Position numbers and translations under genes: made by a program | In this document: piece after piece, positions 13,311 to 33,462 of the stretch | Layout: the number at the start of each line of letters is the position of its first letter | How positions within the stretch are numbered: position 1 is the stretch's first letter | NCBI GenBank assembly: GCA_963676915.2 | Contig: CAXXVK010000006.1 | Coordinates: 66,089 to 130,088, forward strand | DNA from: Myxococcota bacterium | Lineage (GTDB): Bacteria > Myxococcota_A > SURF-8 > G963663525 | Direction of reading: 5' to 3' | DNA: 64,000 nt | Notes under the pieces: model-generated | Databases searched by the model: none | What the model was told of the DNA's origin: nothing | What the model saw: only the letters and a program-made list of their open reading frames with translations

Positions 13311-15692
13311 TTAATCAGCTTGTAACGTTTCCGGGGGAAATACGGTATCGGCACAGCAACGGAACCCGAATTTCTCCGAACGATCGAAGGTTTGCGTCTG
13401 ATTCTGGCATCGGGATTGATAATCGCTGTACGTTCCTCCCATGGTAGCATGTCCCGAAACGCCTTGAATGGTTGAAGTAAACTCCGCCACATTGCCAGAC
13501 AGATCATACACTCCGTTTTGACTGATGCATTGATTGAGATATCCGGTAGGCATCAGTTTCGCCGGGTCGTTGAGCGAATAACGCCCATCGTTGCAGATGT
13601 TGTCCATTTCGGTATCGCCGTATGGGAAATCCGTGGCCGGGTCACCTTCACAAGCGGCAACCCATTCTTCCAAGGTACAAAGCCGTTTTTCCGCTCGCTC
13701 GCAGGCGGCAGCGGCATCGTCGGGCGTGAGATCATACCAGGGAATTTTTCCCGGAAGGCTTTGAGCCGCTTCGTTTTCGTATTCTTCTTCTCCATCGAGG
13801 CAGGGATTTTCACGGAACGTTGCATCGTTGCAAGAAGCTTCGTAGCGATCGATACAAACCCTGTGTCCGGGAATCGGAACCATGTTTTCCGGGCAGCGAT
13901 TGGTCGGACAGTAGCCCCGTTCGACGATGGCACCGATAAAGGATTCCGAATACCCTCCAGCCGAGTCGTTGAACGCGAACTGGATGGTTCCGGGTTTGTC
14001 GTAGCTATACACGCCTCGTTTTCCGGCATACCGGCCGGGGTAATCGATGACCGAATATCGTAGCACGAGTGAATAACGTAGCGCTGACGAAACCAGGCAG
14101 TCGGGACCGCAGGTCTCTCCAAGTTTTCCTGCCGGGGAATAGCAGATCGAGGTTGTGCCGTTATCGGGACAGCCTCCCGGATCGAGCAGGAAGGATTGTT
14201 TGGGAAGCAGAGAGATGTCGGTGACCGTCCAATCGGAAATGGCAGGGATCATCATCAATTGACGATTGCATAGATTTTCGCAGGCCAACTCACGGATTTC
14301 GTAGCTTTCCAGCGGTACGCACAGATGTTCCGCACCGGCGAGGTAAGCGAGGTCGTTTTCGTCGAGACCATTGGGTGAAAGGTACAAATTATCGAGCATT
14401 CCTTTGAAGGGATATTGCAGGGCGTTTTCGTCATCCAAGCTACCACCGAGCACGATGGGTGCTTCGCTTTCCTGCAAGAAGGCCATGACTTCTTTGGTGT
14501 CGCCATCTTTTTCGCCATCGATATACAAGGTCAGGTTGCCGTTGTCGAAAATTATGGCTACATGCGTCCATTTGTCTCTTGCAAGTGTCTGTTCTCCCTG
14601 AATAAATTGCTGGTCACCCAGTGCGTCCCCAAGCCTGAAAACAACCTTGCCTTGTTCGATGCTCAGTTGAAAATCCGGGGCGTCGCCTTTGGTTAGCAGG
14701 ATTTCTTTGCCGGAATCCGGGGCATCCCATTCCGGTTTGATGTTGACTGCCAGACTCAGAGTCCGAGAGTAGCTTCCAAAATTGTCGAGAATGTATGCAC
14801 GCTGTTCGAGACCATTGAAAGACAATCCTGTGTCGTATTTGTTATCGGTACGCAGGACAGCATTTCCGAGGTTGACGGAGGTGGAACAGTAGCGATCCGG
14901 GGCGGCAATTTCGGAATTCAACTCGAAATTGAAGGCAAGAGGCTCACGCTCTTGTTCGCAGGCGGGTACGTAACAGACGGCGTCGGCGCAGGCCCAGTTC
15001 GCAGGGCATTCTTCAATATCGTAGTCTGTGCCGTCCAGGTAACAGGTTTTTATCGCGGCTCGGTCTTCCAGGCACTCGGAGGTTCCACCCTCGCAAAGCA
15101 AAGGACCGCATTCCCCCGTTTCGGGGTGGCAGAATTCGTCGGCCTGGCAGGTCTTCTGGTCGAATCCTTCACCTGATTCACGGCAGGTGGTGGATACGAA
15201 TTTGCTGTCGCAGGTGGTGCAACCAGGTTCGCATTTTCCGTCGAGATCCAAAGGACACTCGGCAACGAATCCTTCTTCCGGCTCGATATCGCCGTCATCA
15301 TCGCCATCAACCGGAGCGGGTTCGGTCTGACAACGTCCCGAGACGCAGTATTCTCCCGTGTCGCAGTCATCTTCCGAGGTACAGGGTGGTTGGCAGGTGT
15401 TGGTGTCGAGATCGCAATAACCCTCACAATGGCTGTCGTAGAGGCATTCGAGGCATTGGCGGGTGGTCCGGTCACAAATTTTATCGTCAAGGCAGTCTGC
15501 GGAAGACGTACATGCGCTGATGCAGGTGCCGGAGGAAGGCGAGCACCATGCGCCGGAGATGCCCGAGCATTCGGTGTCGGTTGTGCAGGTTTGAGCCTCC
15601 TCGTCGCCGCCGTTTTGATTCGTTCCCGTATCTTCACAAGCCAACAAGCAGGCAATCAGAAGAAATCCGAATAGAAATTTGAAACCGTTCAT
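13311..15692 (-). CDS. Cys-rich lipoprotein with LamG-like jellyroll, possible LecA-like lectin domain and C-terminal FGE-sulfatase (SUMF1) domain
   Basis: Lipobox 'LLAC'; CxxDxxC repeats; LamG-like 'WTHVAIIFDNGNLTLYIDG'; FGE-like 'IDRYEAS', 'KRLCTLEEW', 'GVYDLSGNVAEF', 'GFRCC'. Confidence 0.8.
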   Translation of the reverse strand: MNGFKFLFGFLLIACLLACEDTGTNQNGGDEEAQTCTTDTECSGISGAWCSPSSGTCISACTSSADCLDDKICDRTTRQCLECLYDSHCEGYCDLDTNTCQPPCTSEDDCDTGEYCVSGRCQTEPAPVDGDDDGDIEPEEGFVAECPLDLDGKCEPGCTTCDSKFVSTTCRESGEGFDQKTCQADEFCHPETGECGPLLCEGGTSECLEDRAAIKTCYLDGTDYDIEECPANWACADAVCYVPACEQEREPLAFNFELNSEIAAPDRYCSTSVNLGNAVLRTDNKYDTGLSFNGLEQRAYILDNFGSYSRTLSLAVNIKPEWDAPDSGKEILLTKGDAPDFQLSIEQGKVVFRLGDALGDQQFIQGEQTLARDKWTHVAIIFDNGNLTLYIDGEKDGDTKEVMAFLQESEAPIVLGGSLDDENALQYPFKGMLDNLYLSPNGLDENDLAYLAGAEHLCVPLESYEIRELACENLCNRQLMMIPAISDWTVTDISLLPKQSFLLDPGGCPDNGTTSICYSPAGKLGETCGPDCLVSSALRYSLVLRYSVIDYPGRYAGKRGVYSYDKPGTIQFAFNDSAGGYSESFIGAIVERGYCPTNRCPENMVPIPGHRVCIDRYEASCNDATFRENPCLDGEEEYENEAAQSLPGKIPWYDLTPDDAAAACERAEKRLCTLEEWVAACEGDPATDFPYGDTEMDNICNDGRYSLNDPAKLMPTGYLNQCISQNGVYDLSGNVAEFTSTIQGVSGHATMGGTYSDYQSRCQNQTQTFDRSEKFGFRCCADTVFPPETLQAD

Positions 15693-15864
15693 GGGTTTTG
15701 AGCCTCCCGAAAACGCAGAATGTATCATCCAGAGATTAGACTCTCTTTTCGGCGAAATATATCACAACTGGATGAGAATGACAGGGGAGAACGCTCAAAG
15801 CTGCGGGTTTTTGCGCAGATTGGCTCGTTTTTTTACGATTTTACGGTGAGGATTTCAGAGGTGG

Positions 15865-15938: not shown

Positions 15939-17333
15939 TCAATTGGCGTTGATCGTTGGTTCGGCGATCCGTTCCAACCAGTCGTCCAATTGCTTTACGA
16001 ATTCCAGCACCCGGTTCGGTGCTGCACCTCCTTGCACGTCGCGATGTCGGATGGAGGCTTCGAAATCGAGCGCCAATGCTTCCGGTGAAAGCTGCGGGAA
16101 GCGTTTTTGGCGCTCTTCCAGGTCTGTATCCAGCGAGTTTCGTCCTGACTGCTCCAGTTCTGCGACCCAACGGGCGACTTCACCGTGAGCGGCACGAAAC
16201 GGAACGCCTGCTTCCACAAGACGGTCGGCAAGATCGGTGGCGAGCATGTCGCCACTGAGCGTACGAGCCATGTTCTCGGGGAAAAAGGTCACGTCGACTA
16301 AGGCTTCGGTCATAACTCTGACGACGAGCTTTGTGGTGTCCACGGCATCGAACAAAGCCTGTTTGTCTTCCTGGAGATCTTTGGCGTAAGAGAGCGGCAC
16401 GCCCTTGGTGAGCGTCAATAGCGCCGTGGATTGTCCAATGACACGCGCTGCCTTGCCACGAACCAGTTCCATAGCATCGGGGTTGCGTTTTTGCGGCATC
16501 ATAGACGATCCCGTGGACCAGCGATCCGAAAACCGCAGGTAACCGAAGGATGGATGACTCCAGAACACGAATTGCTCGGCATACCTGGACAGGTGCGTTA
16601 CGAGAATCGCGCATGCACTTGCTGTTTCCTGGGCAGCATCCCGGTCGGCGATGGCGTCGAGGCTGTTGGGTAGTACATTCTCGAACCCCAATGCATTTGC
16701 AAGTTTTTTGCGGTCCACCTTGAACCCGGAACCTGCCAGAGCGCCACACCCCAGAGGACATAGCGCGGCTCGGTGGCGGGCGTCGGCCAGGCGGTCGAAA
16801 TCTCGAAGCAGCGCGGCGGCCAGGGAGGACAGAAAATGTCCCAGCGTGATCGGCTGGGCCGGTTGCAGATGTGTGGTGCCTGCCAACAGGGTTGCGGCGT
16901 GGGTTTCGATAGGATCGCGCAATACACGAACAAGGGCGGCGACATCGTCCATCAACCCGCTCAAAGCATCCATGACATAGAGTCGCAGATCGGTTGCCAC
17001 CTGGTCGTTTCGACTGCGGCCGGTATGGATTTTAGCCCCGGTTTCGTCAAGACGTTCGGTCAGGAAACGCTCGACCAACGTATGCACGTCTTCGTCATCC
17101 GGCAGAACGTCGAAGGCTCCGGCATGGAATTCTTTGAGAAGCGCGTCTAGTTCCCGTTCGACGTTCGCCACTTCCTCGGCGCTGAAAACACCGATACGCC
17201 CCAATTCGCTCGCCCATGCACGATTGACGGCCACATCGTAGGGCAACAGGCGAATGTCTACGGGAAGCGAACGGTTGAGCGCGTCCATCAATTCGGAAAC
17301 GGGCAAGTTCAGGCGGCCTTCGTACAGCGTCAT
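15939..17333 (-). CDS. argH: Argininosuccinate lyase
   Basis: 'EDVH', 'IHTGRSRNDQVATD', 'THLQPAQP', 'STGSSMMPQKRNPD', 'DLQEDK'. Confidence 0.97.
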   Translation of the reverse strand: MTLYEGRLNLPVSELMDALNRSLPVDIRLLPYDVAVNRAWASELGRIGVFSAEEVANVERELDALLKEFHAGAFDVLPDDEDVHTLVERFLTERLDETGAKIHTGRSRNDQVATDLRLYVMDALSGLMDDVAALVRVLRDPIETHAATLLAGTTHLQPAQPITLGHFLSSLAAALLRDFDRLADARHRAALCPLGCGALAGSGFKVDRKKLANALGFENVLPNSLDAIADRDAAQETASACAILVTHLSRYAEQFVFWSHPSFGYLRFSDRWSTGSSMMPQKRNPDAMELVRGKAARVIGQSTALLTLTKGVPLSYAKDLQEDKQALFDAVDTTKLVVRVMTEALVDVTFFPENMARTLSGDMLATDLADRLVEAGVPFRAAHGEVARWVAELEQSGRNSLDTDLEERQKRFPQLSPEALALDFEASIRHRDVQGGAAPNRVLEFVKQLDDWLERIAEPTINAN

Positions 17334-17334
17334 G

Positions 17335-18615
17335 TCAGTCTCTCTTGAAGGAATCCCGGTACTTCGAGTATTTCGGCGCGGTATATCCTTTCAGACCATC
17401 GCCGCCTTCCATTTCGATCAGCGTGCGAACCTGGATCGGCAACCCATACAGGTTGATGAAGCCTTCCGCGTCCTTTTGGTTGTAAACGTCGTCCTCACCG
17501 AATGTGGCGAAATCTTCGCGGTACAGACTGTAGGGAGAACGTCGACCCCGGACGATGACGTTGCCTTTGTACAGCAACAGCCGGACTTCTCCGGTGACGT
17601 TTTGTTGGGTTTCCTGGAAAAAGGCGTCGAGTGCTTCACGCAGGGGCACGAAATAGCGACCGTTATAGATCAACTCTGCATATTTTGGAGCGAGTTGTTC
17701 TTTGAAATGCAAGGTTTCGCCATCGAGCACGAGGGTTTCCAATTCATGATGGGCGGAGTAAAGAATCGTTCCGCCCGGTGTTTCATAGACACCGCGTGAT
17801 TTCATTCCGACGAGGCGGTTTTCTACCAGATCCACTCGCCCGATGGCGTGGTCACGACCGATGGTGTTGAGTTGCGTCAGCAATTCGGCGGGAGAGTAGC
17901 TTTTGCCGTCGATGGTTTTCGGGAATCCTTTTTCGAATCCGATGGTGACTTCCCGGCCTTCGTCCGGTGCGTCCCAGGGATGGCGGGTCAACTGGTAGAT
18001 ATGCGGTGGCGCGGCTTGCCACGGATCTTCCAGTTCTCCGCCCTCGCTGGACAGGTGCAGCAGGTTGCGGTCGTGGCTGTAGACGCCTCGCTTTTTCACT
18101 TTGAGTTCCACGTTATGTTTTTCGGCATAGGCAACGGCGTCTTCGCGGGAGCGGATATCCCAGATGCGCCACGGAGCAATGATCGGAATTTTCGGGTTGA
18201 AGGCTTTGAACGCCAACTCGAAACGTACTTGATCGTTGCCTTTTCCCGTGCATCCGTGTGCTACGGCATCGGCGCCTTCGCTTTCTACCGTGTCCATCAT
18301 GTGCTTGGCGATCAACGGACGAGCAATGCTTGTTCCCAGCAGATAGCGCCCTTCGTAAATTGCACCGGTCTGGATCATCGGGAAGATGTAGTCGGCGCAG
18401 AATTCTTCCTGTAGATCGGCGATGACGACTTTGCTTGCGCCAGTCTTGATCGCTCGTTCTTCCAGACCGTCCAACTCTTCGTCACCCTGCCCGACGTTGC
18501 CGACGAAGGCGATGACTTCGCAGCCGTATTTTTCCTTGAGCCAGGGAATGATGATCGAGGTGTCCAGCCCTCCCGAATAGGCGAGCACGGCTTTTTTAAT
18601 GGATAGGTTTTCCAT
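17335..18615 (-). CDS. argG: Argininosuccinate synthase
   Basis: '[10 protein letters not shown]', '[10 protein letters not shown]', '[14 protein letters not shown]', '[17 protein letters not shown]'. Confidence 0.98.
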
Positions 18616-18668: not shown

Positions 18669-19097
18669 TTAAAATACCTGGTCTTTCAGGTGGTTCATCC
18701 ATCTGTCACGTTGTTCTTTTGAATTGAAGGCCGCAAACACCGTGTCGTCTCCCGCGATGGTTCCGGTCAGATCGTCATCTTCCGCAGCATCGAGTACGAC
18801 CGCCACCGAACTGGCGTATCCCAGAGTAGTGTGAACCACTGCCATGTAGGGGCCAGCGGGTAGAAGTTTGAGAATGCGCCCTTTTAATTTTGAAATTTCA
18901 CCATCCGATTGCGTCGGTACGGCGTAACGTCCTGAAACTTTGGAAAGATTCAAGGCGCGGATATCTCTCGAAACCGTTGTTTGCGTCGTTTCGAAACCCC
19001 GTTTGGAGAGCTTTTCACGAAACTCGGTTTGCGTCGCGATGTTTTCTTCTCGCACCATCTCCAAAATGGTTTCGCGTCTTCTCTGGGTTTCGGACAT
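18669..19097 (-). CDS. argR: Arginine repressor
   Basis: wHTH 'TQTTVSRDI' and arginine-binding 'GTIAGDDTVF'. Confidence 0.96.
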   Translation of the reverse strand: MSETQRRRETILEMVREENIATQTEFREKLSKRGFETTQTTVSRDIRALNLSKVSGRYAVPTQSDGEISKLKGRILKLLPAGPYMAVVHTTLGYASSVAVVLDAAEDDDLTGTIAGDDTVFAAFNSKEQRDRWMNHLKDQVF

Positions 19098-19109
19098 TAC
19101 GATATTCCT

Positions 19110-20186
19110 TCAATCTTCCAGGTTGCCAAAAAACGAGAGCGCCAGTTGCGTATACCCTTCGATACCTTTCTCCAACTCTTCGATAGAAATCCATTCGTTC
19201 GGCTGATGGGAGCGCGCCGGGTCGCCGGGACCGACTTTGATGGCCGGAATCTCTCGCCGAGCCAGAGCCGCCCAGTCGCTGGCGGCATCCGAAGCGAAAA
19301 ATCGCTGTTTGGCGAGCGCTTGTTTTGCCGCACGTAAAATTCGTGCGTTGTCCGGTGTCCGGCAGGGAACCCACTGATCGTCAATCACACGTAGGGTTCC
19401 TTCTATCGTTTGTTCAATAATCTCGGTAAGTTCCTGGTGAGTATAGCTCGGCGTACTGCGAAGATCCAACACGGCTGTGGCATATGGGGGCGTTACGTTA
19501 TCGGCGACTCCCGCTTTCAGGCGTGTCGGTGTCAGGCGGATGTTTCCAAGTTCGTTGTGCACCCTATCGAATTGTAAGGCTTTCAGTCGCTGTAAATCAC
19601 TTGATAGCCGATAGATCGCGTTCGGACCATCGGTGCGTGCCGCATGTCCTTGAACGCCATTTGCGGAAAGTTCCAGCACCATCAAGCCTCGTTGCGAGGT
19701 GGCAACATCCATTTTTGTGGGTTCGCCAACCACTGCGCCGTCGATCGATCCGAGATTTTTCAATAATTTCGGCAGGGAAGGGCTGTTGCCTTCTTCTCCG
19801 ATGGAAAATGCAGCGATGGCGCGACCTTGTTTTAGTCCTTGCTGTTTTAATCGTATCATGGCGAACAACATCGCCGCCGCCGAACCTCTGGCATCTACTG
19901 CGCCACGACCATACAGCCGGTTTTCTTCGCGTACGGAACCAAATGGCGGATGCGTCCAGCCATCACCTGCCGGAACCGTATCGAGATGCGTACAGAACAA
20001 TAGCACTGGACCGGGTTTGTCCGCCGAAATCTCGAAAACGATGCCGTCTTCGGAAACGTCCGGTTTGAAACCCATACGCTCGACCCATTGGGCGGATCGT
20101 TCGAGGATCGCCGTTTCCCGGCCCGTTACGCCTTCAACGCAAAGCAGGTCGGCAAGCAGTTCAATTGGTTCAGGCGAGTTCTTCAT
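19110..20186 (-). CDS. argE: M20 family deacylase (acetylornithine/acylcitrulline deacylase)
   Basis: 'THLDTVP', 'LYGRGAVDARG', 'GEE', 'VVGEPT', 'SHQPNEWI'. Located in the arg operon. Confidence 0.85.
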   Translation of the reverse strand: MKNSPEPIELLADLLCVEGVTGRETAILERSAQWVERMGFKPDVSEDGIVFEISADKPGPVLLFCTHLDTVPAGDGWTHPPFGSVREENRLYGRGAVDARGSAAAMLFAMIRLKQQGLKQGRAIAAFSIGEEGNSPSLPKLLKNLGSIDGAVVGEPTKMDVATSQRGLMVLELSANGVQGHAARTDGPNAIYRLSSDLQRLKALQFDRVHNELGNIRLTPTRLKAGVADNVTPPYATAVLDLRSTPSYTHQELTEIIEQTIEGTLRVIDDQWVPCRTPDNARILRAAKQALAKQRFFASDAASDWAALARREIPAIKVGPGDPARSHQPNEWISIEELEKGIEGYTQLALSFFGNLED

Positions 20187-21090
20187 CCTGGTACTTTTGC
20201 TTTTCCCTCTGGTTGACGATCATCGTGCCGCATCCTTCACCTGTGAACAGTTCTACGAGCAATGAATCGGCAGGTTCCGTGCCGATAATGTGCGTACGTT
20301 CCACTCCTTGTTCTGCAGCATGGAGACAGGCTTCCAGCTTGGGACGCATTCCTGCATCGATGGCTCCCGACTCCAGCAACTCCACGAGGTCGTCCCGGTC
20401 GGCGAAGGGTATCAGCGTGGTGGGATCGTTTTTATCCTGCAACACGCCCGGAGCACCGGTCACGAAAATGAGTTTCTTGGCGTTCAGGGATACCGCGATG
20501 GCTTGGGCCAGACCGTCAGCGTTGATGTTGAGCAACGAGCCTTCTTTATCGGCACAGAGACAGGCGACGGTGGGGACGAATCCGGCTTCCAGTTGCGTTT
20601 GCAACAGGCCGTTGTCGATGCCGGAAATATCTCCTACGTGGCCGAAATCGACGAGTTTTTCCACGCCGTCGTCATCGGTGATTTTCACGGGAGGACGTTT
20701 GGAGGCACCGACCATGCGTCCATCCACGCCTGTCAGTCCCAGGGCTTTGACTCCGGCCTTGTTGAGTACGGCGCAGAAGTCGGTGTTGATCGTTCCGGCG
20801 TAGGTCATGACGGCGATGTCCAGCACTTTGTCGGAGGTCACCCGGCGCCCCGCGACGATTTCCGGTTCGATACCCAATTGACGTGAGAGACGAGTGGCCT
20901 GGGGACCACCGCCGTGCACGAGCACAATCCGGATGCCGAGGTCGCACAACAGGGCGATTTGCTCGACCAGCGAGTTTTTTTTGTTTTCATCGTCCAGAAT
21001 ACCGCCGCCGATTTTCAGGACGAATGTTTCGTTTCTGTACAGTCTGAAATAGGGTTGGGCTTGTTTCAACCCTTCGATTCTTGTGTTCAT
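20170..21090 (-). CDS. argB: Acetylglutamate kinase
   Basis: 'VLKIGG', 'LVHGGGPQ', 'GRRVT', 'LNINAD', 'GMRPKL', 'ELFTGEGCGT'. Likely start 21090 (alternative 21105). Confidence 0.93.
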   Translation of the reverse strand: MNTRIEGLKQAQPYFRLYRNETFVLKIGGGILDDENKKNSLVEQIALLCDLGIRIVLVHGGGPQATRLSRQLGIEPEIVAGRRVTSDKVLDIAVMTYAGTINTDFCAVLNKAGVKALGLTGVDGRMVGASKRPPVKITDDDGVEKLVDFGHVGDISGIDNGLLQTQLEAGFVPTVACLCADKEGSLLNINADGLAQAIAVSLNAKKLIFVTGAPGVLQDKNDPTTLIPFADRDDLVELLESGAIDAGMRPKLEACLHAAEQGVERTHIIGTEPADSLLVELFTGEGCGTMIVNQREKQKYQDEELA

Positions 21091-21123
21091 TGGAAAGTTC
21101 TCCATCGTGTGAAAACGGGTTGA

Positions 21124-22287
21124 TTATAGTTTGGATAAAACTTCTTTCAGTGCCGAGACAAATCGCAGCGCCTCGTCTCGAGTCAATGTCAGTGGCGGCA
21201 TGACGCGCAGAACGTGAGGATCAATGCAGCTTCCCGAAAGGATCAAGTGACGATCCCTAAGTACCGGCTGTATCGCTTTCGTTTCCGCTTCCGTTTCGAT
21301 GCCGACAAGCAGTCCCAAACCCCGAACGTTCTTGACTCCCGGGATTTTTGACAGTTCCTCGTGAAGCAACTTGCCGAGTTGGTGGGCGTTGTCGATCAGT
21401 TTGTCTTTTTCGAGCGTTTCCAGGGTTGCCAGTCCCGCCGCCGAGGCTACAGGTCCGCCGCCGAAAGTCGTACCCAACATACCTGGTCCGATCTGATCGG
21501 TGATGTTCCGGTCGGCCAAAGTGGCTGCTACGGGAAATCCTCCGCCAAGACCTTTGGCGAGCGTCAGAACATGAGGGTGGACGCCCAACGCCTGCGAAGC
21601 CGTGAACGCACCGCTTCGTCCTGTGCCGCACTGCACTTCGTCGAATACCAGCAGCGAGCCGGTTTCGTCGCAGCGATCACGTAGCGCCTGCAAAAAAGCC
21701 TTGTCCGCCGTTCGCGCGCCGCCAAGTCCCTGTACCGGTTCAATCACGACCGCCGCGCAGCCGTCGCCGATAGCTTTCAGCGCTGCATCGGTGTAGTTGA
21801 ACGGTACGATTTTGACGTGAGGATACAGCGGTTCACCTTCGAGGCAAGCGAGCTTACGGTACTTTTCGATACCGCCAATGGAAAGCATCAGCAGGCTGCG
21901 TCCGTGGAATCCACCCTCGAAGGCTACGACGGTTTTTCGCTTCGTGACGATCCGGGCGAGCGTCAGCGCGTTTTCGTTGCTTTCCGCTCCGCTGTTACAC
22001 AAAAAGGCGGCGTACATGTTTTCCGGGGCCATGGCCACGAGTTTTTCACAAAACTTCCGTCGGATTTTCAGGTCGACCGCATTGGAGTAAAAAGTCAGTC
22101 GTTCGGCCTGTTGCGCAATGGCTTTGGTTAGAGCCGGATGGGCGTGCCCTAGTGCTGCCACGGCGTGACCGCCGTACATGTCGAGATACTCCCTGCCTTC
22201 GGAGTCGATGACTACGTTGCCGTGACCTGAGACGATTTCGAAGGGAAGCTGTTGATAAACAGGCATTTGAGGAGGAGCGCTTAGCAT
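21124..22287 (-). CDS. argD: Acetylornithine aminotransferase (class III PLP)
   Basis: 'YLDMYGGHAV', 'NSGAESNE', 'FHGR', 'FDEVQCG', 'LAKGLGGG', 'TTFGGGP'. Confidence 0.92.
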   Translation of the reverse strand: MLSAPPQMPVYQQLPFEIVSGHGNVVIDSEGREYLDMYGGHAVAALGHAHPALTKAIAQQAERLTFYSNAVDLKIRRKFCEKLVAMAPENMYAAFLCNSGAESNENALTLARIVTKRKTVVAFEGGFHGRSLLMLSIGGIEKYRKLACLEGEPLYPHVKIVPFNYTDAALKAIGDGCAAVVIEPVQGLGGARTADKAFLQALRDRCDETGSLLVFDEVQCGTGRSGAFTASQALGVHPHVLTLAKGLGGGFPVAATLADRNITDQIGPGMLGTTFGGGPVASAAGLATLETLEKDKLIDNAHQLGKLLHEELSKIPGVKNVRGLGLLVGIETEAETKAIQPVLRDRHLILSGSCIDPHVLRVMPPLTLTRDEALRFVSALKEVLSKL

Positions 22288-23312
22288 GGAAAACCTCCCG
22301 CGATCTGCAATCCCGCCGTCTCTTCCAGTCCGAGCGACAGGTTCATGTTCTGAATGGCTTGTCCCGCTGCACCTTTGACGAGGTTGTCTAGTGCCAGCGT
22401 AATGACGAGTTCCCGTTGCGATTGCGTGACGTGCACGTGGACGTGGTTTGTTCCTGCCACTTCGGCTACTTGTGGTGGCGCTTCGGTTACCGTGACGAAC
22501 GGGTGATCGCTATAGTAATCCCGAAAGAGCGTTTCGGCATCTAAATCACTGTAAATTTCGTGTTCCAGGTAGGTCGTCGTGTGAATGCCACGCACGAACG
22601 GACCCGAGTGGGGAAGCAGGCGGATCGACGGCTTTTGTCCCGTGACGGTTTCGATAGTCTGGACGATTTCCGGCTCGTGCTGATGGGCAAGCAGTTTGTA
22701 GGCCCAGAAATTCCCGTGACGATGCGGATGATGTGTACCGGGTTTGGGATGAATACCCGATCCCGAGGAGCCGGTAACGGCATAGACGGCCGGATTTACA
22801 GGTAATATCGATTCCTTAGCCAAAGGCAACAAGGCCAGTTGCACTGCCGTGGCAAAACAACCGGGATTCGCAATACGGCTGTGTCCTTTGAGGTCGTTTC
22901 GAAACGCTTCGGGAAGTCCGTAGCGGTACCGGGAGACGAGATCGAAACAGGTGTGCGGCATGAACGAACGTTCGAATGCTTCACGGTCATGCAAACGGAA
23001 ATCGGCGGCCAGATCGACGATGCAGGGAAGCTCGGAGTCGGTCAGATCCGCAAGAAAACTCATGCTTTTGCCATGGGGCAGAGCAGAAAACAGCACGTCG
23101 GCATCTTCGAGAACTTTCGAAGGGGAAAACGCCTCGAAATCGAGAGCCAGCAGATGACGAAGACCGCGATGCACGGCATGAACGGGTTTGCCTTCGTGAC
23201 TATGGCTGTAGGCGTGGAGTCCGGAGACGTTCGGATGTCCCGCAAGCAGGCGTAGCAATTCGCCTCCTGCCATGCCTCCAGCGCCGAGGACCGCTACTCG
23301 CAGATCGTTCAT
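22281..23312 (-). CDS. argC: N-acetyl-gamma-glutamyl-phosphate reductase
   Basis: 'GAGGMAGGELLRLL', 'ALPHG', 'DLAADFRL', 'YGLPE', 'IANPGCFAT', 'DNLVKGAAGQAIQNMN'. Confidence 0.96.
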   Translation of the reverse strand: MNDLRVAVLGAGGMAGGELLRLLAGHPNVSGLHAYSHSHEGKPVHAVHRGLRHLLALDFEAFSPSKVLEDADVLFSALPHGKSMSFLADLTDSELPCIVDLAADFRLHDREAFERSFMPHTCFDLVSRYRYGLPEAFRNDLKGHSRIANPGCFATAVQLALLPLAKESILPVNPAVYAVTGSSGSGIHPKPGTHHPHRHGNFWAYKLLAHQHEPEIVQTIETVTGQKPSIRLLPHSGPFVRGIHTTTYLEHEIYSDLDAETLFRDYYSDHPFVTVTEAPPQVAEVAGTNHVHVHVTQSQRELVITLALDNLVKGAAGQAIQNMNLSLGLEETAGLQIAGGFPC

Positions 23313-24373
23313 GCCGGTTTCTCCACTTTTTCCAGTGCCTTCAGTACCACTCCGGCCAATCCTTCCAGATCGTAGCGAGCGTTGTGTGCGGCGAGTTTCA
23401 GTTGGTTTTCGATGTATCCCCGGCCTACGCCGTTATCCGTTACCGGTCCGGCCATGGCGTCGATGGTCAAGCCGAAACGCTGGTGATAAATTTCTTTTGC
23501 TCCATAGGCCGCTACGGGATCGGGGGCGCATACGATGTGACACGAAGCCGCCTGTTGGAATTCGGGATCGGAAAGGATGTCCGATACACCGTAATCGCCC
23601 AACAGACCGTCACCCAGTTCGGCTACGATCAGATCGGGTTTCTCGGAAGCCAGGAAGTTGATAAGTCCTTTAGAGACGGGAAGAATCCGTGCCCCTCGTG
23701 TAGAGACGACCCCGGCATCGGTGAAGTCGAGGATACGGCTGGCCCCGGCGTCTTTCATGGCGAGAACGTCGCGCATCAGACTTACACCGGTTAGTTTGCA
23801 GGCAGCGACCTGCATGCCTTGATGGGAAAGCGCTCGGACGATTTCGGTGGCGGCCACGGTTTTTCCGCTGTTCATGCTCGTGCCTGCCACAAAGACGAGA
23901 GGCGGCAGCTTGGCGAGAGTTTCGCTAGGTTCGATTCCGTTCGATTCGATGCGTGCTGGCTGGCCCACGCGGTCGCCGACACGGGGGAATTTCAGAATGG
24001 AACCCAGCACTTCGGCCTCGAAGGGGTCACCCAACTCCGGGTTGATGGCGGTGCAACGTCCCAGCACGCCTCCCAAGTTGAGCACTTGTACCGTATCTCC
24101 GGCGGCGAGCGTATCGGGCACTACTCCTGCATACCCTTTAAGCGCCATTCGGTAGCCTAAAACACCTGCAAGAATATCGTCGCGGTGGAGTTTGATCATC
24201 CGCCCGTTGATATCCTCGATACGGTTGTAGGTGTACTTGCTGTTGAGAATACGCACAGCCAGCAGGTGACCTTCCTCGCAGACGATTTCGTCTCCGACGA
24301 GCACGTCGGGAGAAAGCGAGGCATTGCGCGTTGAAGAGGCGATACGGTCGAGTTTGATTTTTCGGACTTGCAT
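23309..24373 (-). CDS. Uncharacterised DUF1611-like P-loop protein, first gene of the arg operon
   Basis: Deviant Walker A 'VAGTSMNSGKT', 'KLTG', 'DFTDAG', Walker-B-like 'LIVAELGDG'. 4-bp ATGA overlap with argC. Confidence 0.7.
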   Translation of the reverse strand: MQVRKIKLDRIASSTRNASLSPDVLVGDEIVCEEGHLLAVRILNSKYTYNRIEDINGRMIKLHRDDILAGVLGYRMALKGYAGVVPDTLAAGDTVQVLNLGGVLGRCTAINPELGDPFEAEVLGSILKFPRVGDRVGQPARIESNGIEPSETLAKLPPLVFVAGTSMNSGKTVAATEIVRALSHQGMQVAACKLTGVSLMRDVLAMKDAGASRILDFTDAGVVSTRGARILPVSKGLINFLASEKPDLIVAELGDGLLGDYGVSDILSDPEFQQAASCHIVCAPDPVAAYGAKEIYHQRFGLTIDAMAGPVTDNGVGRGYIENQLKLAAHNARYDLEGLAGVVLKALEKVEKPA

Positions 24374-24388
24374 AGGATTCGCCTTTAA

Positions 24389-24446
24389 AATGCATAAATA
24401 TGCAACAAAATGCAGTTATAATGCATGAAAGATGCATAAAGTCAAG
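24389..24446 (-). promoter_or_regulatory. arg operon promoter with ARG-box-like operators
   Basis: TGCAT-aaat-ATGCA palindrome (24391-24404) plus further TGCA half-sites at 24411, 24422 and 24433. Minus-strand TTGACT -35 at 24440-24445. Confidence 0.7.
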
Positions 24447-27299: not shown

Positions 27300-29420
27300 T
27301 CAACGGTTCCCAACTGTCGATGAGAGAAATTCGTCAAGGGACATTGTTGCAATATTCCCTGCATCAGAAGCCTTTATTTGAACGTGGCTTGCGTAGACAT
27401 GCAGATAGAGGGATTCGTAGACAGCGACAAGATCCGTCGAAGGTTGGTTCAAGCAAAGTTTCTGAAATTCATAGGAAAATTCGTCTGCGAGCCAGGTATC
27501 CATTCCCACGTCGTATTGGGTGCTTATGGAGTTTTCCGTTTCATTGGATGATGTAAACATCACGACGCCTGGGGTATCCACTTCTTGTCCCATCAAGCCG
27601 GAATGGCAGGATTCCACGACCAGAAGCACTCGCCGATACCGTTCCTGTTCATACATTTTCGATAAAGTTTCCGCCAACAATTTCGGGGTCATATTCGAAA
27701 CTACGCCTCCGTTCCAATCGAGGTGATCGGTTGCGCCGACTTTCAGCCCTTCGTCCGTTCCATGGCCGACGAAAAAGATGAATAGGTTGTCTCCCGGACC
27801 GCTCTCCACGACGGTTGGAAGTACTTCCGTACTTTCTCCCGCCAGGATGTGAAGAATGTCGAAAGACGTAAGATTCTCCAGCAGGTAATCCACCTCGACG
27901 TCGTGATACAGATTTTCTCCTCCCACCTCGTTATAGATCTCGCCCGGATGGAGATTTTTTCCCGAATCCGCGATATCGTCCGCGAGAATCAGCAGAATGT
28001 GATCGTCATCAAAACCGTTACTTTTCAGAATCTGGTAAAGCGCCAGTGCATCAGCTTGGTGTCTGTAATTGGTCCATCCCGAGGAAACGGCTGCAATCAA
28101 CGCCCACGATCCCGTGTGATCACCCGGTTGATAATCACTCTCGTTATCGAGGAGCTGTTGTTTTGCATGGGATGCAAAGGACCGATCGATGGATTGATCG
28201 TACCCGGACGTAAACCATTTATCCTCAACGAATTCTCCGTTTTCAACTTTCCAATGTGCGTAAGTGGACGAAACAAGGTCGGTTTGCACCGTTTCGTCGT
28301 AATCGAGCAGTCCGGTGCTTCCCGAAATGTCTGGAAAAGAACCTTTTCGCAGTCGTTCCAGAGTTTCCGAGACACCATCCCGACCCCAGCTCGTTACCTC
28401 ACCATTTCCGGCAACAACGCGGGTCATTGCCTCGGCAAGATAACCTCCTCCCAATCCTCCGGAAACCTCCAATCCGTAAGCCAACAGAAGAAGGGCGTCG
28501 TAACTGTTGGCTGCATATTCGGCAGGCCGTTCACCGAAACGTTCCAGATGAGCTTCCACGAAACCGGATTCGGGATGCGAAGCCAAACGAATGCCTTCCA
28601 CGCCTTCGGCTTCGTCCCCGAGTTCATCCAGAAGCGAAGAGGTTTGAGCTGCATCGGAAAGCAGCAGGTGGATATCGGGATCGAACTGTCGCGCCTGGCG
28701 AACGATGCATGCTGCGGATTCCGGTTCGCTCACCGCAACCACAAGAGCATCCGGCTGGTTGCTTAATGCTTTTTCGACCGCTTCATCACAGCTTTCCAGG
28801 TCGGAATTGTATCGAATCACGTTTTTCGCATCCAAATTGAGTTCGGTTGCGAAAAATCCGAACCAATCGAAAAAAGTCGCTCCATAACGGTTGTTGGAAC
28901 TGATGAGAGAGATGCTTTCGGCGTCACTCTCCTGTATGAGAAGCAACAAGGCTTTGACTTGCGCCGTATCCGATTCGACGGTACGCCAAAAATATCCTTT
29001 TCCCGCGAAAGCACGGAAAATCTCGGCCGCCGTTGCGGAAGGCGTTACGAACACCTTTCCGGCATCGAGAAATATCGAGGCCGTTTCGAAAACGCCGTCC
29101 GAGGTATCCGGTCCGATGACGCCCAGAATTTCGGGATCGTTCACGAAATTCTGGGCGGCATCTTCGTAGCCGGTTACGAACGTGTCAGTATAGACCAATT
29201 CGAGATTTCTACCGGCCACACCGCCGGATTCATTGACGTTTTCGAGTGCCCAATTCAAAGAGCGCTCCCACTGCATGGACTCGGGACCGGACAATGGAAG
29301 CATCACGCCGATTTTCAATGATGGTTTCGCCTCCTCGGAGCAACCACCGGCTCCGAGGAGGCATACGAGAAGGTTCATGAGTAGAATCAAAGAGATGGTG
29401 GTGGTTTGTCGATCGTTCAT
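27300..29420 (-). CDS. Lipoprotein: type-1 periplasmic binding protein (LivJ-like) fused to a C13 legumain-family peptidase
   Basis: Lipobox 'AGGC'; PBP1 motifs 'IGVMLPLSG', 'GGVAGRNLEL', 'YDALLLLA'; C13 motifs 'WTNYRHQAD', 'FFVGHG', 'VESCHSG'. Confidence 0.88.
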   Translation of the reverse strand: MNDRQTTTISLILLMNLLVCLLGAGGCSEEAKPSLKIGVMLPLSGPESMQWERSLNWALENVNESGGVAGRNLELVYTDTFVTGYEDAAQNFVNDPEILGVIGPDTSDGVFETASIFLDAGKVFVTPSATAAEIFRAFAGKGYFWRTVESDTAQVKALLLLIQESDAESISLISSNNRYGATFFDWFGFFATELNLDAKNVIRYNSDLESCDEAVEKALSNQPDALVVAVSEPESAACIVRQARQFDPDIHLLLSDAAQTSSLLDELGDEAEGVEGIRLASHPESGFVEAHLERFGERPAEYAANSYDALLLLAYGLEVSGGLGGGYLAEAMTRVVAGNGEVTSWGRDGVSETLERLRKGSFPDISGSTGLLDYDETVQTDLVSSTYAHWKVENGEFVEDKWFTSGYDQSIDRSFASHAKQQLLDNESDYQPGDHTGSWALIAAVSSGWTNYRHQADALALYQILKSNGFDDDHILLILADDIADSGKNLHPGEIYNEVGGENLYHDVEVDYLLENLTSFDILHILAGESTEVLPTVVESGPGDNLFIFFVGHGTDEGLKVGATDHLDWNGGVVSNMTPKLLAETLSKMYEQERYRRVLLVVESCHSGLMGQEVDTPGVVMFTSSNETENSISTQYDVGMDTWLADEFSYEFQKLCLNQPSTDLVAVYESLYLHVYASHVQIKASDAGNIATMSLDEFLSSTVGNR

Positions 29421-29448
29421 GAAACCTCTCGGATGGAGTATTTTTTCG

Positions 29449-32400
29449 TTACGGCGATTCACAGACTACATTGCGAAGATAGTCGCAAGAAACGTCATTC
29501 CAAGAGCGTTCGTTGTCCGTGTATGCCTCGATACAATTTTCGCTATTGTTTTTATTGTCCGGCTCATCAGTGTACCAGTTTTCGTAGCTCCAGGGCGTTC
29601 CGTCCTGCCACTCCCAACCATCTCTCTTCAGGTAGGTAACCGGATAACAAATTATAGAGACGCAGAATTGGCCTATGGTTTCGACTCTGATATCATGACC
29701 ACCCAGCCAGACTTTTTCATTGTACCCATTCAAAAGAGTGACAAGGTCAGCCTGTTTTTCTGCGCTGTCAATCGTAGCCAAGTGACCACCTTCCGTCCAG
29801 GTGGCACAAAATTCCTGGGCTCTTTCCTGGTTGTAAGTCATGTCGAATAGCGCCAGGTTCCCTTGTGTGGCCACGGGATCGGGAAACATCTGCTCGCAAA
29901 CAAAGGATTTCTTGGCATTGCAGAAATCGTCAATCCATTCATGGCTGCTATCGGAATCTGTCGCAATGCAGTGCTGGATACCGTATTCATTGTCAGGTTG
30001 TCCGCTTTGCCAGTAGGTATTGTCGATTCCATCGTTGTTCATCCATTTCCACGTGCGATCTCCGGATGTATAATAATCGTGACCGCCGATCCAATTGCTA
30101 TTTGACGAAGAGGAAAGCAACTCCTTGACATTTTCCCATTCATCGTCATTGTCGATTATAACCAAGTGCGCGTGATCTTTCCAGTTTTCACAAATCGTTT
30201 GGGCGTCTTCCCAGGTTGCTCCACGATTGAACACGGCATACAACCCATCTTCAAGGTCGGGGGCTGGATTCATGCAGACAAATTTCAGTTCTTCCGAGCA
30301 TGTATAATCGTTCCATTCACCATTCGGATGAATGGTACCGCAATCTTCGTTGTTCAGGGCATCGTTGGGTTCTCCTGCACCCCAGTTGGCAACATCGTCG
30401 CTCCATTTTGCGCCGTCCAGCCATTGCCATTGTCCTTCTTTCTCGTGGTCGCTGGCACCGATCCAGATCGAACTGGAGAACGAATCTCCGAGAAACTCGG
30501 TTAGAGCATCCACTTCCGATTGGCTTCGAAGCGAGACCAATTGCCCGTTGGGTTGCCAGCAATTGCAGATATTCTGCGCATCTTGGAAAGATTTCGGCGT
30601 TTCGAACAGGGCGAAATGACCGTCATCCAGCGCAGGGGCGTGCGAAGACTCGGTAATGTCTTCTCCACCGCCGCATGTCGTATCTCCCTGGCAGGTTTCA
30701 CCTAACGTGCAGGCATCGCCGTCGTCGCACCAACCGCCTTCGTTGCACAGGTAGCACTGGCCATATCCCGGAGGCAGGGACGTATGGTGCTCTTCTTGTT
30801 CTATTTCACCGTATCCCGATCCCAGGTCATCGACCCAGTAGTTCACGACGCTGTAACTAAGACCCACGTCTTCACGATTTAACTTGTAGACGAACATCCC
30901 CCAGTTGTAATCGAATTGCTGATCGTAGAAATATGGATATTCGAGGAAATCTCCACTCATGGGAAAATCCTCGGGATTGATACAACCAAGTTCTCTGTCT
31001 GCCAGAATCGCCGGATCCGTGCTGAAACAGTGAACGATTCCATTGACGCTCGATTCATATTCCGTTGAGGTTCCTACAGTATATTTATAGCTATCTCCTG
31101 AAGCGAAGCTGTAATGTTCGTACAGACCGACACTGCTTTCCGTACCTTCTCCCAAAAAGCGGTCTCCTAATAATAAACCGACTTCGGCCTCTTCGGAAAA
31201 GCCTTGCGTCATTTCTTCTTCGTGCCCGGTTTCTTCTTCCAATTTTATCGATGTACCGTTGGCTCCCAAGGAAGCATCTCCCAACGTTACGGTTCCTGAC
31301 TTTTCGAACCAATCGACATTGGCGAGAATTTTATCCCTATCGTAGGGACGGGGATAGGTGACGACTTCGCCGGGAGTGCTCGTCAGAGTTTCGGCACCGA
31401 TATCGGGCGCCGTTCCGTTGCATGCGTTGTAATGGTTAAGTGTCCACGTCCACATATTCGTACCGACAGGACGCTCCACTTTCATATACGTGCCTATATC
31501 CTCCGGGTTTGGTGAACGAATGACTTTGTATCTGTAGGCACGGTATACCGCTCCCTGGAAAATGACGTAATTGGACAAATGATCGATCGTATATGTGTTT
31601 TCGAATTCGACGCTATGCGCTTCCGTATCGGTTTCGGTCCATTCCGTTTCGATACCGTTTTTGTATCCAACCTTTATTCCAATACCTAAAGCCTCCGCTT
31701 CCATTTCTCCCCATACTCCGACTTCCAACGTGGAAGTGTCGATGGTTCCCGTTTCGGAAGAGGAACTTTTTCCGGTGATGTACGAAGCTTCCGTTCCCGA
31801 AAAATGCTGTGGGAGATGCTCCTGAGACGGAGGCGCAGCCATGACCACGACGGGAATGGGGTTGGACAGATGATCCCAGGATTCACCCGTGTATTCCACG
31901 GTGATACCGTCGCCATCGAAATCACCAATCACGAGGTTCGGACCATTCAACGTTTTAAAACTGGAGCGGACGATTTTTTGCGATTGCATTTCTTCGAAGT
32001 AGTAATGGTAACTCTCAGCATTGACTTGGCTTTGGTAGGTTGTCCACGTAATACTATAATCCATTCCTTCGAATACAACCTCTGAAACGACCAGAAGGTC
32101 TTGAGTGCTTTGTGTTTGCCCCATGGCTCCCAAGCCAAGTGAGTCGCTGGTTTGGATTGGAACACGCGAACTTGACTCGCTAATCCCAGCTGGGTCTATG
32201 CCAGGAAGCCAGTAGTATGTATGCCACGAATTTGTTGTAGTAGATAACGGATTGCTTGGTACAATATTCAATCCCAGTACGACTTCATCTTTACCATTTC
32301 CGTCGTAATCACCAACTGCCGTTTGTATCACTCCTCTCGAGAAAGTGGCTGTATCAAATTTGTACGTTGAGGAAAAAGAGCTTTCGAACTCATGATCTTT

Positions 32401-33462
32401 CGAGAATTCGCCGTCCTCGTAATTCCAAACCTCCCCAAAAACCTCTCGCCCATCGGTGACAGCGAAAAGGACGATTTCATCGTTAGAATCCGCATCGAAA
32501 TCTCCGATGACCGCACTCGTGGCACTCGCAACATAGTCATTAATTTCGCTCCAGGATTGCATTTCTGTCAAATTGCCATCCGAGTAGTCGAAAACCCAGG
32601 CCCCTGAAACCAATGTTGAATTTCCATTGGGTGTGTAGACATTCAGCGCCATAACGAGGATTTCGTCCTTGTCGTCGCCATCGATATCTCCGGTGGCGAT
32701 TGTGGGACTGGAGTACGTTTCATCATCGAGAACGACACTATCGAGTTCTGACCATTCGCCATCGTTGTAATCCCAAACCTGAATGGTCAACGTACCATTA
32801 TTGACGAAAACCGACGCGAGTTCTTTACCATCGAATGGGTCATTCCCGTCGATATCTCCCAAAGCAACATCTGTATTACGGGGACCATCTCCCAAAGTAA
32901 TGCGATGGCTTCTTTGTAAGCCGGTTCCGGCAACGTAGTCGAAAAACGTCAGATAACTGCCATCATCTTTTTGATGAGCAATAACGACGCTCTCTTTGCC
33001 ATCGCCGTTCCAATCTCCGGAAGCGATGGCGGTTCGTTCAGGATTTTGGTCATATTCATTGATGAATAAACTATCCGAATCCTCGACCACACCGAGGGAG
33101 TCAAAGTTGTTTTCCGTATCGTCCCGCACCCAACCGATTTCGTAATCGTTCGTTGAATAGTCAAAGTGAGGCGTTAAAAGCGCCACTTCATCCACAGTGA
33201 CGAGCGAAGTCCGCTTATGCCCCAACGGATGATAGCCTTCGAAAGGTTCTTCTTCCGTATCGATAGCATTCATATCGTATTGATTGGCGGAATTCATCTC
33301 CGGTTCCGGCCAGGCTTCGCCCCCTAAAGGATCATTGTCTATGATATTTTTTGACGAAGACGAGGAATTCGAGTCGCAACCGACGATGGAAAACACAAAG
33401 ACGATTAGAATTGCACAAATGAACTTCAAACCGATCTTTTTCTCGTTTAAAATTTTGTTCAT
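29449..33462 (-). CDS. Large lipoprotein with FG-GAP/VCBS repeats, a beta-rich central domain and three C-type lectin domains
   Basis: Lipobox 'IVGC'; repeats 'GDWNGDGKE', 'GDIDGDDKDEI', 'GDFDADSNDEI', 'GDYDGNGKDEV', 'GDFDGDG'; three CTLDs with WIG/WLG, EPN/QPD/EPD and WND/WID motifs. Confidence 0.88.
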   Translation of the reverse strand: MNKILNEKKIGLKFICAILIVFVFSIVGCDSNSSSSSKNIIDNDPLGGEAWPEPEMNSANQYDMNAIDTEEEPFEGYHPLGHKRTSLVTVDEVALLTPHFDYSTNDYEIGWVRDDTENNFDSLGVVEDSDSLFINEYDQNPERTAIASGDWNGDGKESVVIAHQKDDGSYLTFFDYVAGTGLQRSHRITLGDGPRNTDVALGDIDGNDPFDGKELASVFVNNGTLTIQVWDYNDGEWSELDSVVLDDETYSSPTIATGDIDGDDKDEILVMALNVYTPNGNSTLVSGAWVFDYSDGNLTEMQSWSEINDYVASATSAVIGDFDADSNDEIVLFAVTDGREVFGEVWNYEDGEFSKDHEFESSFSSTYKFDTATFSRGVIQTAVGDYDGNGKDEVVLGLNIVPSNPLSTTTNSWHTYYWLPGIDPAGISESSSRVPIQTSDSLGLGAMGQTQSTQDLLVVSEVVFEGMDYSITWTTYQSQVNAESYHYYFEEMQSQKIVRSSFKTLNGPNLVIGDFDGDGITVEYTGESWDHLSNPIPVVVMAAPPSQEHLPQHFSGTEASYITGKSSSSETGTIDTSTLEVGVWGEMEAEALGIGIKVGYKNGIETEWTETDTEAHSVEFENTYTIDHLSNYVIFQGAVYRAYRYKVIRSPNPEDIGTYMKVERPVGTNMWTWTLNHYNACNGTAPDIGAETLTSTPGEVVTYPRPYDRDKILANVDWFEKSGTVTLGDASLGANGTSIKLEEETGHEEEMTQGFSEEAEVGLLLGDRFLGEGTESSVGLYEHYSFASGDSYKYTVGTSTEYESSVNGIVHCFSTDPAILADRELGCINPEDFPMSGDFLEYPYFYDQQFDYNWGMFVYKLNREDVGLSYSVVNYWVDDLGSGYGEIEQEEHHTSLPPGYGQCYLCNEGGWCDDGDACTLGETCQGDTTCGGGEDITESSHAPALDDGHFALFETPKSFQDAQNICNCWQPNGQLVSLRSQSEVDALTEFLGDSFSSSIWIGASDHEKEGQWQWLDGAKWSDDVANWGAGEPNDALNNEDCGTIHPNGEWNDYTCSEELKFVCMNPAPDLEDGLYAVFNRGATWEDAQTICENWKDHAHLVIIDNDDEWENVKELLSSSSNSNWIGGHDYYTSGDRTWKWMNNDGIDNTYWQSGQPDNEYGIQHCIATDSDSSHEWIDDFCNAKKSFVCEQMFPDPVATQGNLALFDMTYNQERAQEFCATWTEGGHLATIDSAEKQADLVTLLNGYNEKVWLGGHDIRVETIGQFCVSIICYPVTYLKRDGWEWQDGTPWSYENWYTDEPDNKNNSENCIEAYTDNERSWNDVSCDYLRNVVCESP

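Follow-up and report, generated by a model that had tools for sequence, protein, structure and literature searches.

The stretch of DNA analysed here, called the window below, comprises 64,000 nucleotides of contig CAXXVK010000006.1 from a Myxococcota bacterium (GCA_963676915.2), and all coordinates are window positions. Its minus strand carries an arginine biosynthesis operon headed by a gene of unknown role, here called orfX, whose product is a candidate for the enzyme that forms the N-acylglutamate required by the acetylglutamate kinase ArgB. The following features, based on open reading frames (ORFs) and on matches to family hidden Markov models (HMMs), were assigned to the operon:

24374-24446, minus strand: promoter and operator region of the operon, with a promoter-like pair and palindromes
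23309-24373, minus strand: orfX, ATG start, 354 amino acids, candidate N-acylglutamate-forming enzyme
22281-23312, minus strand: argC, N-acetyl-gamma-glutamyl-phosphate reductase (TIGR01850, 334 bits, cut-off 233.6)
21124-22287, minus strand: argD, acetylornithine-type aminotransferase (Aminotran_3)
20170-21105, minus strand: argB, acetylglutamate kinase without a fused acetyltransferase domain (TIGR00761, 200 bits, cut-off 151)
19110-20186, minus strand: M20 deacylase of the ArgE/DapE family, presumed N-acylornithine deacylase (TIGR01910, 160 bits, cut-off 217.6)
18669-19097, minus strand: argR, arginine repressor (family HMM matches)
17335-18615, minus strand: argG, argininosuccinate synthase (family HMM matches)
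15939-17333, minus strand: argH, argininosuccinate lyase (family HMM matches)

The gene order on the minus strand, orfX-argC-argD-argB-M20 deacylase-argR-argG-argH, agrees with the operon described in an earlier note on this DNA, where the deacylase was called argE; the family assignment stands, and the protein lies under every equivalog cut-off of the NCBIfam models. ArgB and ArgC exceed the acetyl-type equivalog cut-offs, while the LysZ, LysY and LysK models score far below theirs. The stop codon of orfX and the start codon of argC share positions 23309-23312, where the minus strand reads ATGA as previously stated, an arrangement indicative of translational coupling between the two genes. 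In this otherwise complete arginine operon orfX is the sole gene of unknown role; argF lies outside it, a canonical ornithine transcarbamylase (OTC) being encoded on another contig of the same genome.

Upstream of orfX there is a sigma-70-like promoter pair (24445-24418), made up of TTGACT (24445-24440), a 16-nucleotide spacer and CATTAT (24423-24418), together with a perfect palindrome, TGCAT-N4-ATGCA, at 24391-24404 and a second copy with one mismatch at 24401-24414. Only four perfect copies of this palindrome are present in the whole genome of 5.18 Mb, and in two related loci (L003 and L006) it likewise immediately precedes orfX. It is plausible that the palindromes constitute an ARG box, that is, a putative operator to which ArgR would bind.

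We searched the assembly from which the window derives (5.18 Mb in 74 contigs, 90.8% complete) for the known enzymes of the first step. Consistent with the operon being described in the earlier note as lacking argA and argJ, no match above cut-off was detected elsewhere in this genome for ArgJ, for full-length ArgA (the TIGR01890 model matches argB alone), for the NAT-type N-acetylglutamate synthase (NAGS) domain or for the mycobacterial short NAGS (PRK07922-type, best score 17 bits). Neither LysW nor the LysX pre-ATP-grasp domain was found in it. The genome contains 22 matches to the generic GNAT model (PF00583), none of them on the contig of the window, and on the evidence of this genome alone there is thus room for a cryptic free-standing GNAT.

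Gene neighbourhood and distribution of orfX

The occurrence of orfX was surveyed in 201 genomes of the same phylum and in an even sample of 121 Acidobacteriota genomes, part of the counts being made by hand from match tables. In the own-phylum sample orfX gave 47 matches at E<=1e-20, of which 39 are referred to here as close (E<=1e-57, near full length), and in Acidobacteriota it gave 28 matches at E<=1e-47. The linkage to arginine genes that would be expected of a pathway enzyme was evident in both samples: 35 of the 39 close own-phylum genes lie directly upstream of argC in the same direction, and all 28 Acidobacteriota genes adjoin argC. Among the 30 best-match loci of the phylum, orfX directly precedes argC in 28, with argD next in 26 of these (the other two have no argD match within the short flank), and argG or argR is often located upstream of orfX. 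The four close genes that are not found at argC all belong to one family; argR is upstream in both of the two loci examined, and one of the four, scanned more widely, has an OTC gene downstream of orfX.

Six related loci were found with the orfX protein as query. The arrangement orfX-argC-argD also occurs in two Acidobacteria metagenome-assembled genomes (MAGs) and in one Fimbriimonadales MAG, the latter with the order argR-orfX-argC-argD. One of the Acidobacteria MAGs has argG, argB, an M20 gene, argH and argR around orfX, which among the genes identified there is again the sole one of unknown role. None of the orfX-containing arginine clusters examined includes a GNAT gene.

The distribution of orfX is strictly complementary to that of every route of N-protection of glutamate that was searched. 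In the own-phylum sample, argC is present in 164 genomes, ArgJ in 107 and the NAT domain in 32; full-length ArgA occurs in 16, each of which carries ArgJ as well. The 164 argC-bearing genomes divide into 105 with ArgJ, 39 with a close orfX, 18 more with NAT and two with none of these, so that 162 of the 164 carry at least one of ArgJ, ArgA, NAT and close orfX. The anti-correlation with argA and argJ predicted in the earlier note was found throughout, given that ArgJ, full-length ArgA or NAT occurs in none of the 39 genomes with a close orfX. In Acidobacteriota, 62 argC-bearing genomes comprise 28 with orfX, 26 with ArgJ and eight others, without overlap; ArgJ is absent from all 28 orfX genomes, and NAT was not found in any of the 121 genomes of this sample.

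These first-step alternatives replace one another within families. Family f12 includes 13 genomes with ArgJ and four with orfX; family f25 has nine with orfX and one with ArgJ, and one of its genera holds one of each; and the 15 argC-bearing genomes of family f9 comprise 14 with NAT and one with orfX. In one same-genus pair (G151 and G181) ArgJ is found in one genome and orfX in the other. An f9 member (G013, L042 10906-12234) encodes a bifunctional protein made up of an amino-acid kinase and NAT (PF04768), within an argF-argG-M20-argB/NAT-argC-argH operon.

Two of the eight remaining Acidobacteriota genomes were examined, and in both LysX is encoded directly upstream of the argC homologue, that is, in the position otherwise taken by orfX. 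The clusters of these genomes, G207 (L073 59-3991) and G213 (L070 132-4027), both without ArgJ and orfX, have the order LysX (ATP-grasp), LysY/ArgC, an unknown protein of 212 amino acids and an amino-acid kinase, and adjoin homocitrate-synthase or isopropylmalate-dehydrogenase-like genes; they are LysW-type pathways for aminoadipate or arginine. The two argC-bearing genomes of the own-phylum sample with none of ArgJ, ArgA, NAT and orfX (G153 and G190) may have another solution for the first step or an assembly gap.

Some Acidobacteriota genomes with orfX contain two copies of argC. In three of them (G266, G283 and G307) the copy adjacent to orfX scores clearly lower with TIGR01850 (264-278 bits) than the other copy (360-382 bits), while G304 has two copies with similar scores (359 and 364 bits). 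The argC genes linked to orfX appear, in either phylum, to score lower than the argC of ArgJ genomes; a distinct subfamily of ArgC or another acyl group might be the cause. Several argC matches in Acidobacteriota were flagged as containing one internal TGA, and selenocysteine was considered for these; in the one match translated, the TGA was the terminal stop codon, and this idea was discarded.

Family, domains and fold of the orfX protein

The orfX protein belongs to a family that is unnamed in Pfam and NCBIfam according to family HMM scans. Among 8000 candidates scored, 2358 homologues of similar length were found at E<=0.001, and 1401 representatives of 50%-identity clusters were found at E<=0.001, 162 of them at E<=1e-30. 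The best 120 homologues are 56-91% identical to orfX, all names given for them being "hypothetical protein" and their organism labels Myxococcales or Gemmatimonadota. Neighbours in the ESM Atlas are unnamed clusters or clusters automatically named "DUF1611 domain-containing protein". All family matches of orfX itself (DUF1611, CbiA, AAA_26, MobB and BioD) are below threshold and cover about 36 residues around the P-loop. A sequence search of the PDB returned weak FtsY, BioD and MobB matches only, and phmmer with the C-terminal domain alone gave nothing useful.

The AlphaFold model of orfX (predicted local distance difference test, pLDDT, 96.6; predicted template modelling score 0.93) consists of two domains, which together with the conserved motifs are located as follows:

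23939-24373, minus strand: N-terminal all-beta domain, residues 1 to about 145, with conserved E53, R58, D66, R75, P86, N99 and E121
23309-23924, minus strand: C-terminal P-loop domain (SIMIBI, BioD/DUF1611-like), residues about 150-354, from structure and profile matches
23858-23884, minus strand: Walker A motif GTSMNSGKT, residues 164-172, with G170 and K171 invariant
23795-23797, minus strand: K193, invariant, aligned with the lysine of the BioD "AKP..SG" segment after strand 2
23606-23620, minus strand: ELGDG, residues 252-256, with E252 invariant and aligned with the glutamate of BioD "EGAGG" and DUF1611 "EGQG"

Both motifs reported in the earlier note, GTSMNSGKT and ELGDG, are thus located in the C-terminal domain. 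Five residues (P86, G170, K171, K193 and E252) are invariant among 62 diverse members of the family. The lysine and glutamate at positions 193 and 252 align with conserved residues of BioD at identical spacing from the P-loop, and three DUF1611 sequences compared with orfX lack the lysine corresponding to K193. The N-terminal domain also displays many invariant charged residues in family alignments. Modelled alone it reached a pLDDT of 90.6, and searches returned no convincing structural match (best VIA Z 3.8, with the LexA C-domain; none by Foldseek at E<=0.001), a result that does not by itself prove a novel fold. It is reasonable to suppose that it serves as a glutamate-binding or specificity domain.

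The P-loop domain was compared with about 48,000 representative PDB chains using VIA, a structural search independent of Foldseek. The highest Z scores were obtained with DUF1611 proteins (2g0t, 17.3; 2obn, 16.6), BioD (16.4-14.7), DgcN (7xrj, 15.5) and the synthetase domain of CTP synthase (15.4), which from these model-based scores seem effectively tied, followed by formyl-tetrahydrofolate (formyl-THF) synthetase (13.2) and cyclic 2,3-diphosphoglycerate synthetase (12.5). Foldseek with the full model gave generic SIMIBI matches (FtsY/Ffh, HypB and BioD) with E about 3e-6 and TM scores of at most 0.40. In profile comparisons with hhalign, orfX matched DUF1611 with a probability of 90.3% (E 1.5e-6, 184 columns) and BioD with a probability of 91.7% (E 7.6e-7, 151 columns); the alignment with the DUF1611 profile spans only columns 133-346 of orfX.

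The description of orfX as DUF1611-like in the earlier note therefore applies to one part of the protein. The C-terminal P-loop domain is homologous to that of DUF1611 by hhalign and VIA, but the HMM cut-offs were not reached, the N-terminal domain is unrelated and BioD is equally close. The PF07755 model scored 19.9 bits over 36 residues against a cut-off of 25, and the DgcN model NF041892 was not among the orfX matches at E<=0.01. Because both models failed and the DUF1611-type N-terminal domain is lacking, membership of orfX in DUF1611/DgcN was rejected. A scan of 61 genomes with PF07755 at E<=1e-5 gave no match in the five orfX genomes of the same order (G000, G024, G030, G042 and G054). 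The dethiobiotin synthetase model TIGR00347 likewise stayed below its cut-off with orfX (16.9 bits against 83.3), and a true BioD is encoded elsewhere in the genome (154 bits). Since the ties extend to DUF1611 and BioD alike, the P-loop domain falls in the BioD/DUF1611 group as a member of neither family, and its relation to DUF1611 is at the superfamily level. The other statement of the earlier note, that DgcN belongs to DUF1611, was confirmed, true DUF1611 proteins matching NF041892 at 1e-47 to 1e-50.

Proposed role of orfX and competing explanations

The position of orfX at the head of arginine operons in at least three phyla, its coupling to argC, its complementarity to the other first-step enzymes and its LysX-like position make it likely that it has a role in N-acylglutamate formation. 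We consider orfX the probable source of the N-acylglutamate that ArgB uses, as a candidate non-orthologous replacement of the ArgA, ArgJ and NAT-type NAGS enzymes. The proposal of the earlier note that orfX fills the missing first step is thereby upheld as a probable one by in silico evidence, namely operon position, distribution and absences in its own genome, and all the in silico checks suggested in that note turned out in favour of it.

Several points weigh against this assignment. A cryptic short NAGS might be hidden among the 22 GNATs of the genome, no search having been aimed at the ArgA2/Cabys_1732 type of Bacteroidetes; and the assembly is 90.8% complete. When all 47 own-phylum matches are counted, eight co-occur with ArgJ. 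These eight are 27-36% identical to orfX, start near its residue 50, have E-values of 1e-22 to 1e-32 and are in no case near argC; they are taken as paralogues, yet the line between close and weak matches was set at the E-value gap with the ArgJ table already in view. Related genomes are not independent, so that the Fisher p-value obtained overstates the case. The 28 Acidobacteriota genes include those of two unpublished genomes (G227 and G252), without which the linkage to argC is 26 of 26. With respect to the chemistry, orfX is as far from the ATP-dependent BioD as from DUF1611, which makes the analogy with DgcN a weak one, and K193, matching a BioD lysine absent from the three DUF1611 sequences, would favour ATP chemistry over acyl-CoA.

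According to the proposed mechanism, orfX would produce an N-blocked glutamate, most likely N-acetyl-L-glutamate, to be fed to ArgB in a linear pathway that would end with the M20 deacylase and a normal OTC. The all-beta domain, with its conserved arginine, aspartate and glutamate residues, probably holds L-glutamate, and the BioD/DUF1611-type P-loop domain would bind the nucleotide part of the co-substrate. In the version we place first, with rather less than even confidence, orfX is an acyl-CoA transferase: acetyl-CoA or another acyl-CoA would be bound via the P-loop, and the acyl group would pass to the alpha-amino group of glutamate as with DgcN, the sole glutamate N-acetyltransferase characterised in this fold group. 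This version was chosen because DgcN shows that the fold group can N-acetylate glutamate. Anatomy, operon position and complementary distribution are observed, whereas we infer which reaction orfX catalyses, with what acyl group and from what donor. Acetyl is the presumed acyl group, given that ArgB and ArgC exceed the acetyl-type equivalog cut-offs, although the M20 deacylase is below all such cut-offs.

DgcN is a D-glutamate N-acetyltransferase (EC 2.3.1.312), as named in PMC11747546; its activity is taken here from the title of PDB entry 7xrj, the name of NF041892 and the quoted EC name. It shares with orfX the fold of the C-terminal P-loop domain, and the reaction proposed for orfX is likewise an N-acylation of glutamate. 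On the other hand, orfX does not match the DgcN model, has an unrelated all-beta N-terminal domain and an invariant K193 absent from the DUF1611 sequences, and is found in an anabolic setting (an arginine operon, with L-glutamate as the expected substrate), in contrast to the D-glutamate catabolism of DgcN. By this analogy orfX is rated as a putative P-loop glutamate N-acyltransferase with DgcN as its precedent.

The same role could be fulfilled by a different chemistry, and ATP-driven ligation of a free acid appears nearly as likely as acyl-CoA transfer, which makes it a possible, if doubtful, account. In this case orfX would be an ATP-dependent ligase (EC 6.3-type) resembling BioD, CobQ and CTP synthase, in which a small carboxylic acid, such as acetate released by the M20 deacylase, would be phosphorylated and coupled to the amino group of glutamate. 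The hhalign match to BioD is as good as that to DUF1611; the Walker A GKT, K193 and E252 align at identical spacing with the GKT, the "AKP" lysine and the "EGAGG" glutamate of BioD, the lysine being the one missing from the three DUF1611 sequences; and the other VIA matches (CTP synthase, formyl-THF synthetase and cyclic 2,3-diphosphoglycerate synthetase) are ATP-dependent enzymes that form amides or anhydrides and work via acyl or carbamoyl phosphates. Against a ligase, we know of no N-acetylglutamate synthase that uses ATP, the nearest functional precedent acting on glutamate, DgcN, is classed as an acetyltransferase, and the residues compared are generic nucleotide and phosphate binders that could equally hold the phosphates of CoA. 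The likeness to the BioD/DTBS-like ligases (CobB/CobQ and the CTP synthase domain) in fold and in the aligned GKT, lysine after strand 2 and glutamate is accompanied by clear differences, as orfX has an extra N-terminal domain of 145 residues, is found in the context of an arginine operon and scores below the TIGR00347 cut-off.

Should orfX be such a ligase, it may tentatively be seen as founding a new class of first-step enzyme, in which an ATP-driven ligase resembling BioD, and equipped with a beta domain not seen before, would N-acylate glutamate from a free acid. Acetate released by the M20 deacylase could then, for example, be recycled at the cost of one ATP, and the pathway would be independent of acyl-CoA in Myxococcota-like bacteria, Acidobacteriota, Gemmatimonadota and Armatimonadota, which would represent categorically new chemistry for the arginine pathway.

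It is unlikely, in our estimation, that orfX is not the synthase at all and that a cryptic GNAT encoded elsewhere makes N-acetylglutamate, orfX being an accessory nucleoside triphosphatase (NTPase) such as a regulator, an assembly factor or an enzyme acting on a by-product. The 22 GNAT matches of the genome would allow for this, and among SIMIBI P-loop proteins chaperones and regulators are common, the fold matches including FtsY, HypB, UreG, MeaB and ArgK-like proteins. However, the exclusion of ArgJ, ArgA, NAT and LysX (0 of 39 and 0 of 28 genomes) is not expected of an accessory factor, nor would such a factor be expected to raise the argC genomes with a candidate first enzyme to 162 of 164. 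In addition, the orfX arginine clusters examined have no GNAT gene, and orfX sits where LysX sits in the LysW-type clusters.

That orfX attaches glutamate to a carrier protein or to a large protecting group, as an analogue of LysX/ArgX, is very improbable, for although it could, as a P-loop protein, make use of ATP and holds the LysX position upstream of an ArgC/LysY homologue, no LysW was found in its genome, the overlap of orfX with argC leaves no space for a small ORF between them, and ArgB and ArgC exceed the acetyl-type cut-offs with the LysZ, LysY and LysK models far below. LysX/ArgX and orfX may both depend on ATP, but orfX has another fold, without ATP-grasp, RimK or LysX domains.

Considered as a candidate for the functional class of N-acetylglutamate synthase (EC 2.3.1.1), orfX shares pathway position, operon membership and mutually exclusive distribution with the known first-step enzymes, namely ArgA (amino-acid kinase plus GNAT), ArgJ, ArgB-NAT, short GNAT NAGS, ArgA2 and ArgA3. 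Neither in sequence nor in fold is it related to these enzymes: in agreement with the absence of GNAT and ArgJ features claimed in the earlier note, Pfam and NCBIfam scans found no catalytic domain of GNAT, NAT (PF04768) or ArgJ (PF01960) type in orfX. The published replacements of ArgA considered here (PMC7311316, PMC9026213, PMC3236213) consist of GNATs, one NAT fusion and one M20 homologue. They include the bifunctional ArgB-NAT of the Maricaulis/Xanthomonas type (PMC3236213) and two enzymes predicted in gut bacteria, ArgA2 (GNAT) and ArgA3 (M20 homologue) (PMC9026213). None of these described replacements is a P-loop protein, and our literature search found no P-loop first-step enzyme, with the limitation that more enzymes replacing ArgA could be given in the supplements of PMC9026213 and PMC7311316.

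The first step of arginine synthesis is a classic missing-gene problem, in which many prototrophs without ArgA or ArgJ are called auxotrophs by automated reconstruction. If the role proposed for orfX is correct, this gap would be closed for 39 of the 164 arginine-pathway genomes of its own phylum (about a quarter) and for 28 of the 62 in Acidobacteriota (almost half), groups that abound in soil and sediment. The enzymes that protect amino groups would be joined by a P-loop member whose substrate domain is novel, and an unnamed protein family would gain a function.

Distant relatives and neighbouring sequences

The weak-match paralogues, which have no NCBIfam or Pfam match, are found in genome G017 and seven others, in genomes that carry both ArgJ and ArgA. 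The one in G017 (L052 9808-11996) lies directly downstream of an M20 peptidase gene; a TRAP solute-binding protein and a divergent GCS2 carboxylate-amine ligase are encoded next to it, and its substrate or product may be another N-acyl or gamma-glutamyl amino acid. In an uncultured gammaproteobacterium of the Pseudomonadales (L036 9833-12761, and the same in L037), the gene for a relative of orfX with 395 amino acids and 32% identity comes after one for a siderophore-interacting protein and overlaps an ABC exporter gene at its start, with no arginine genes nearby.

Four long gene models (P0271-P0274; 661-791 amino acids, E<=1e-20, one member each) match 75-97% of the length of orfX. The Pfam domains listed in them are ArgC in P0272 and P0274 and ArgG in P0273, with none in P0271, and these models may be gene-calling artefacts or read-through rather than true fusions.

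Within the window, an ORF of 805 amino acids (13311-15728, minus strand) directly downstream of argH encodes a product rich in cysteine, aspartate and glutamate with an N-terminal hydrophobic, lipoprotein-like leader. Upstream of the arginine locus, two large ORFs with overlapping ends (720 and 1337 amino acids) occupy positions 27300-33462 on the minus strand.

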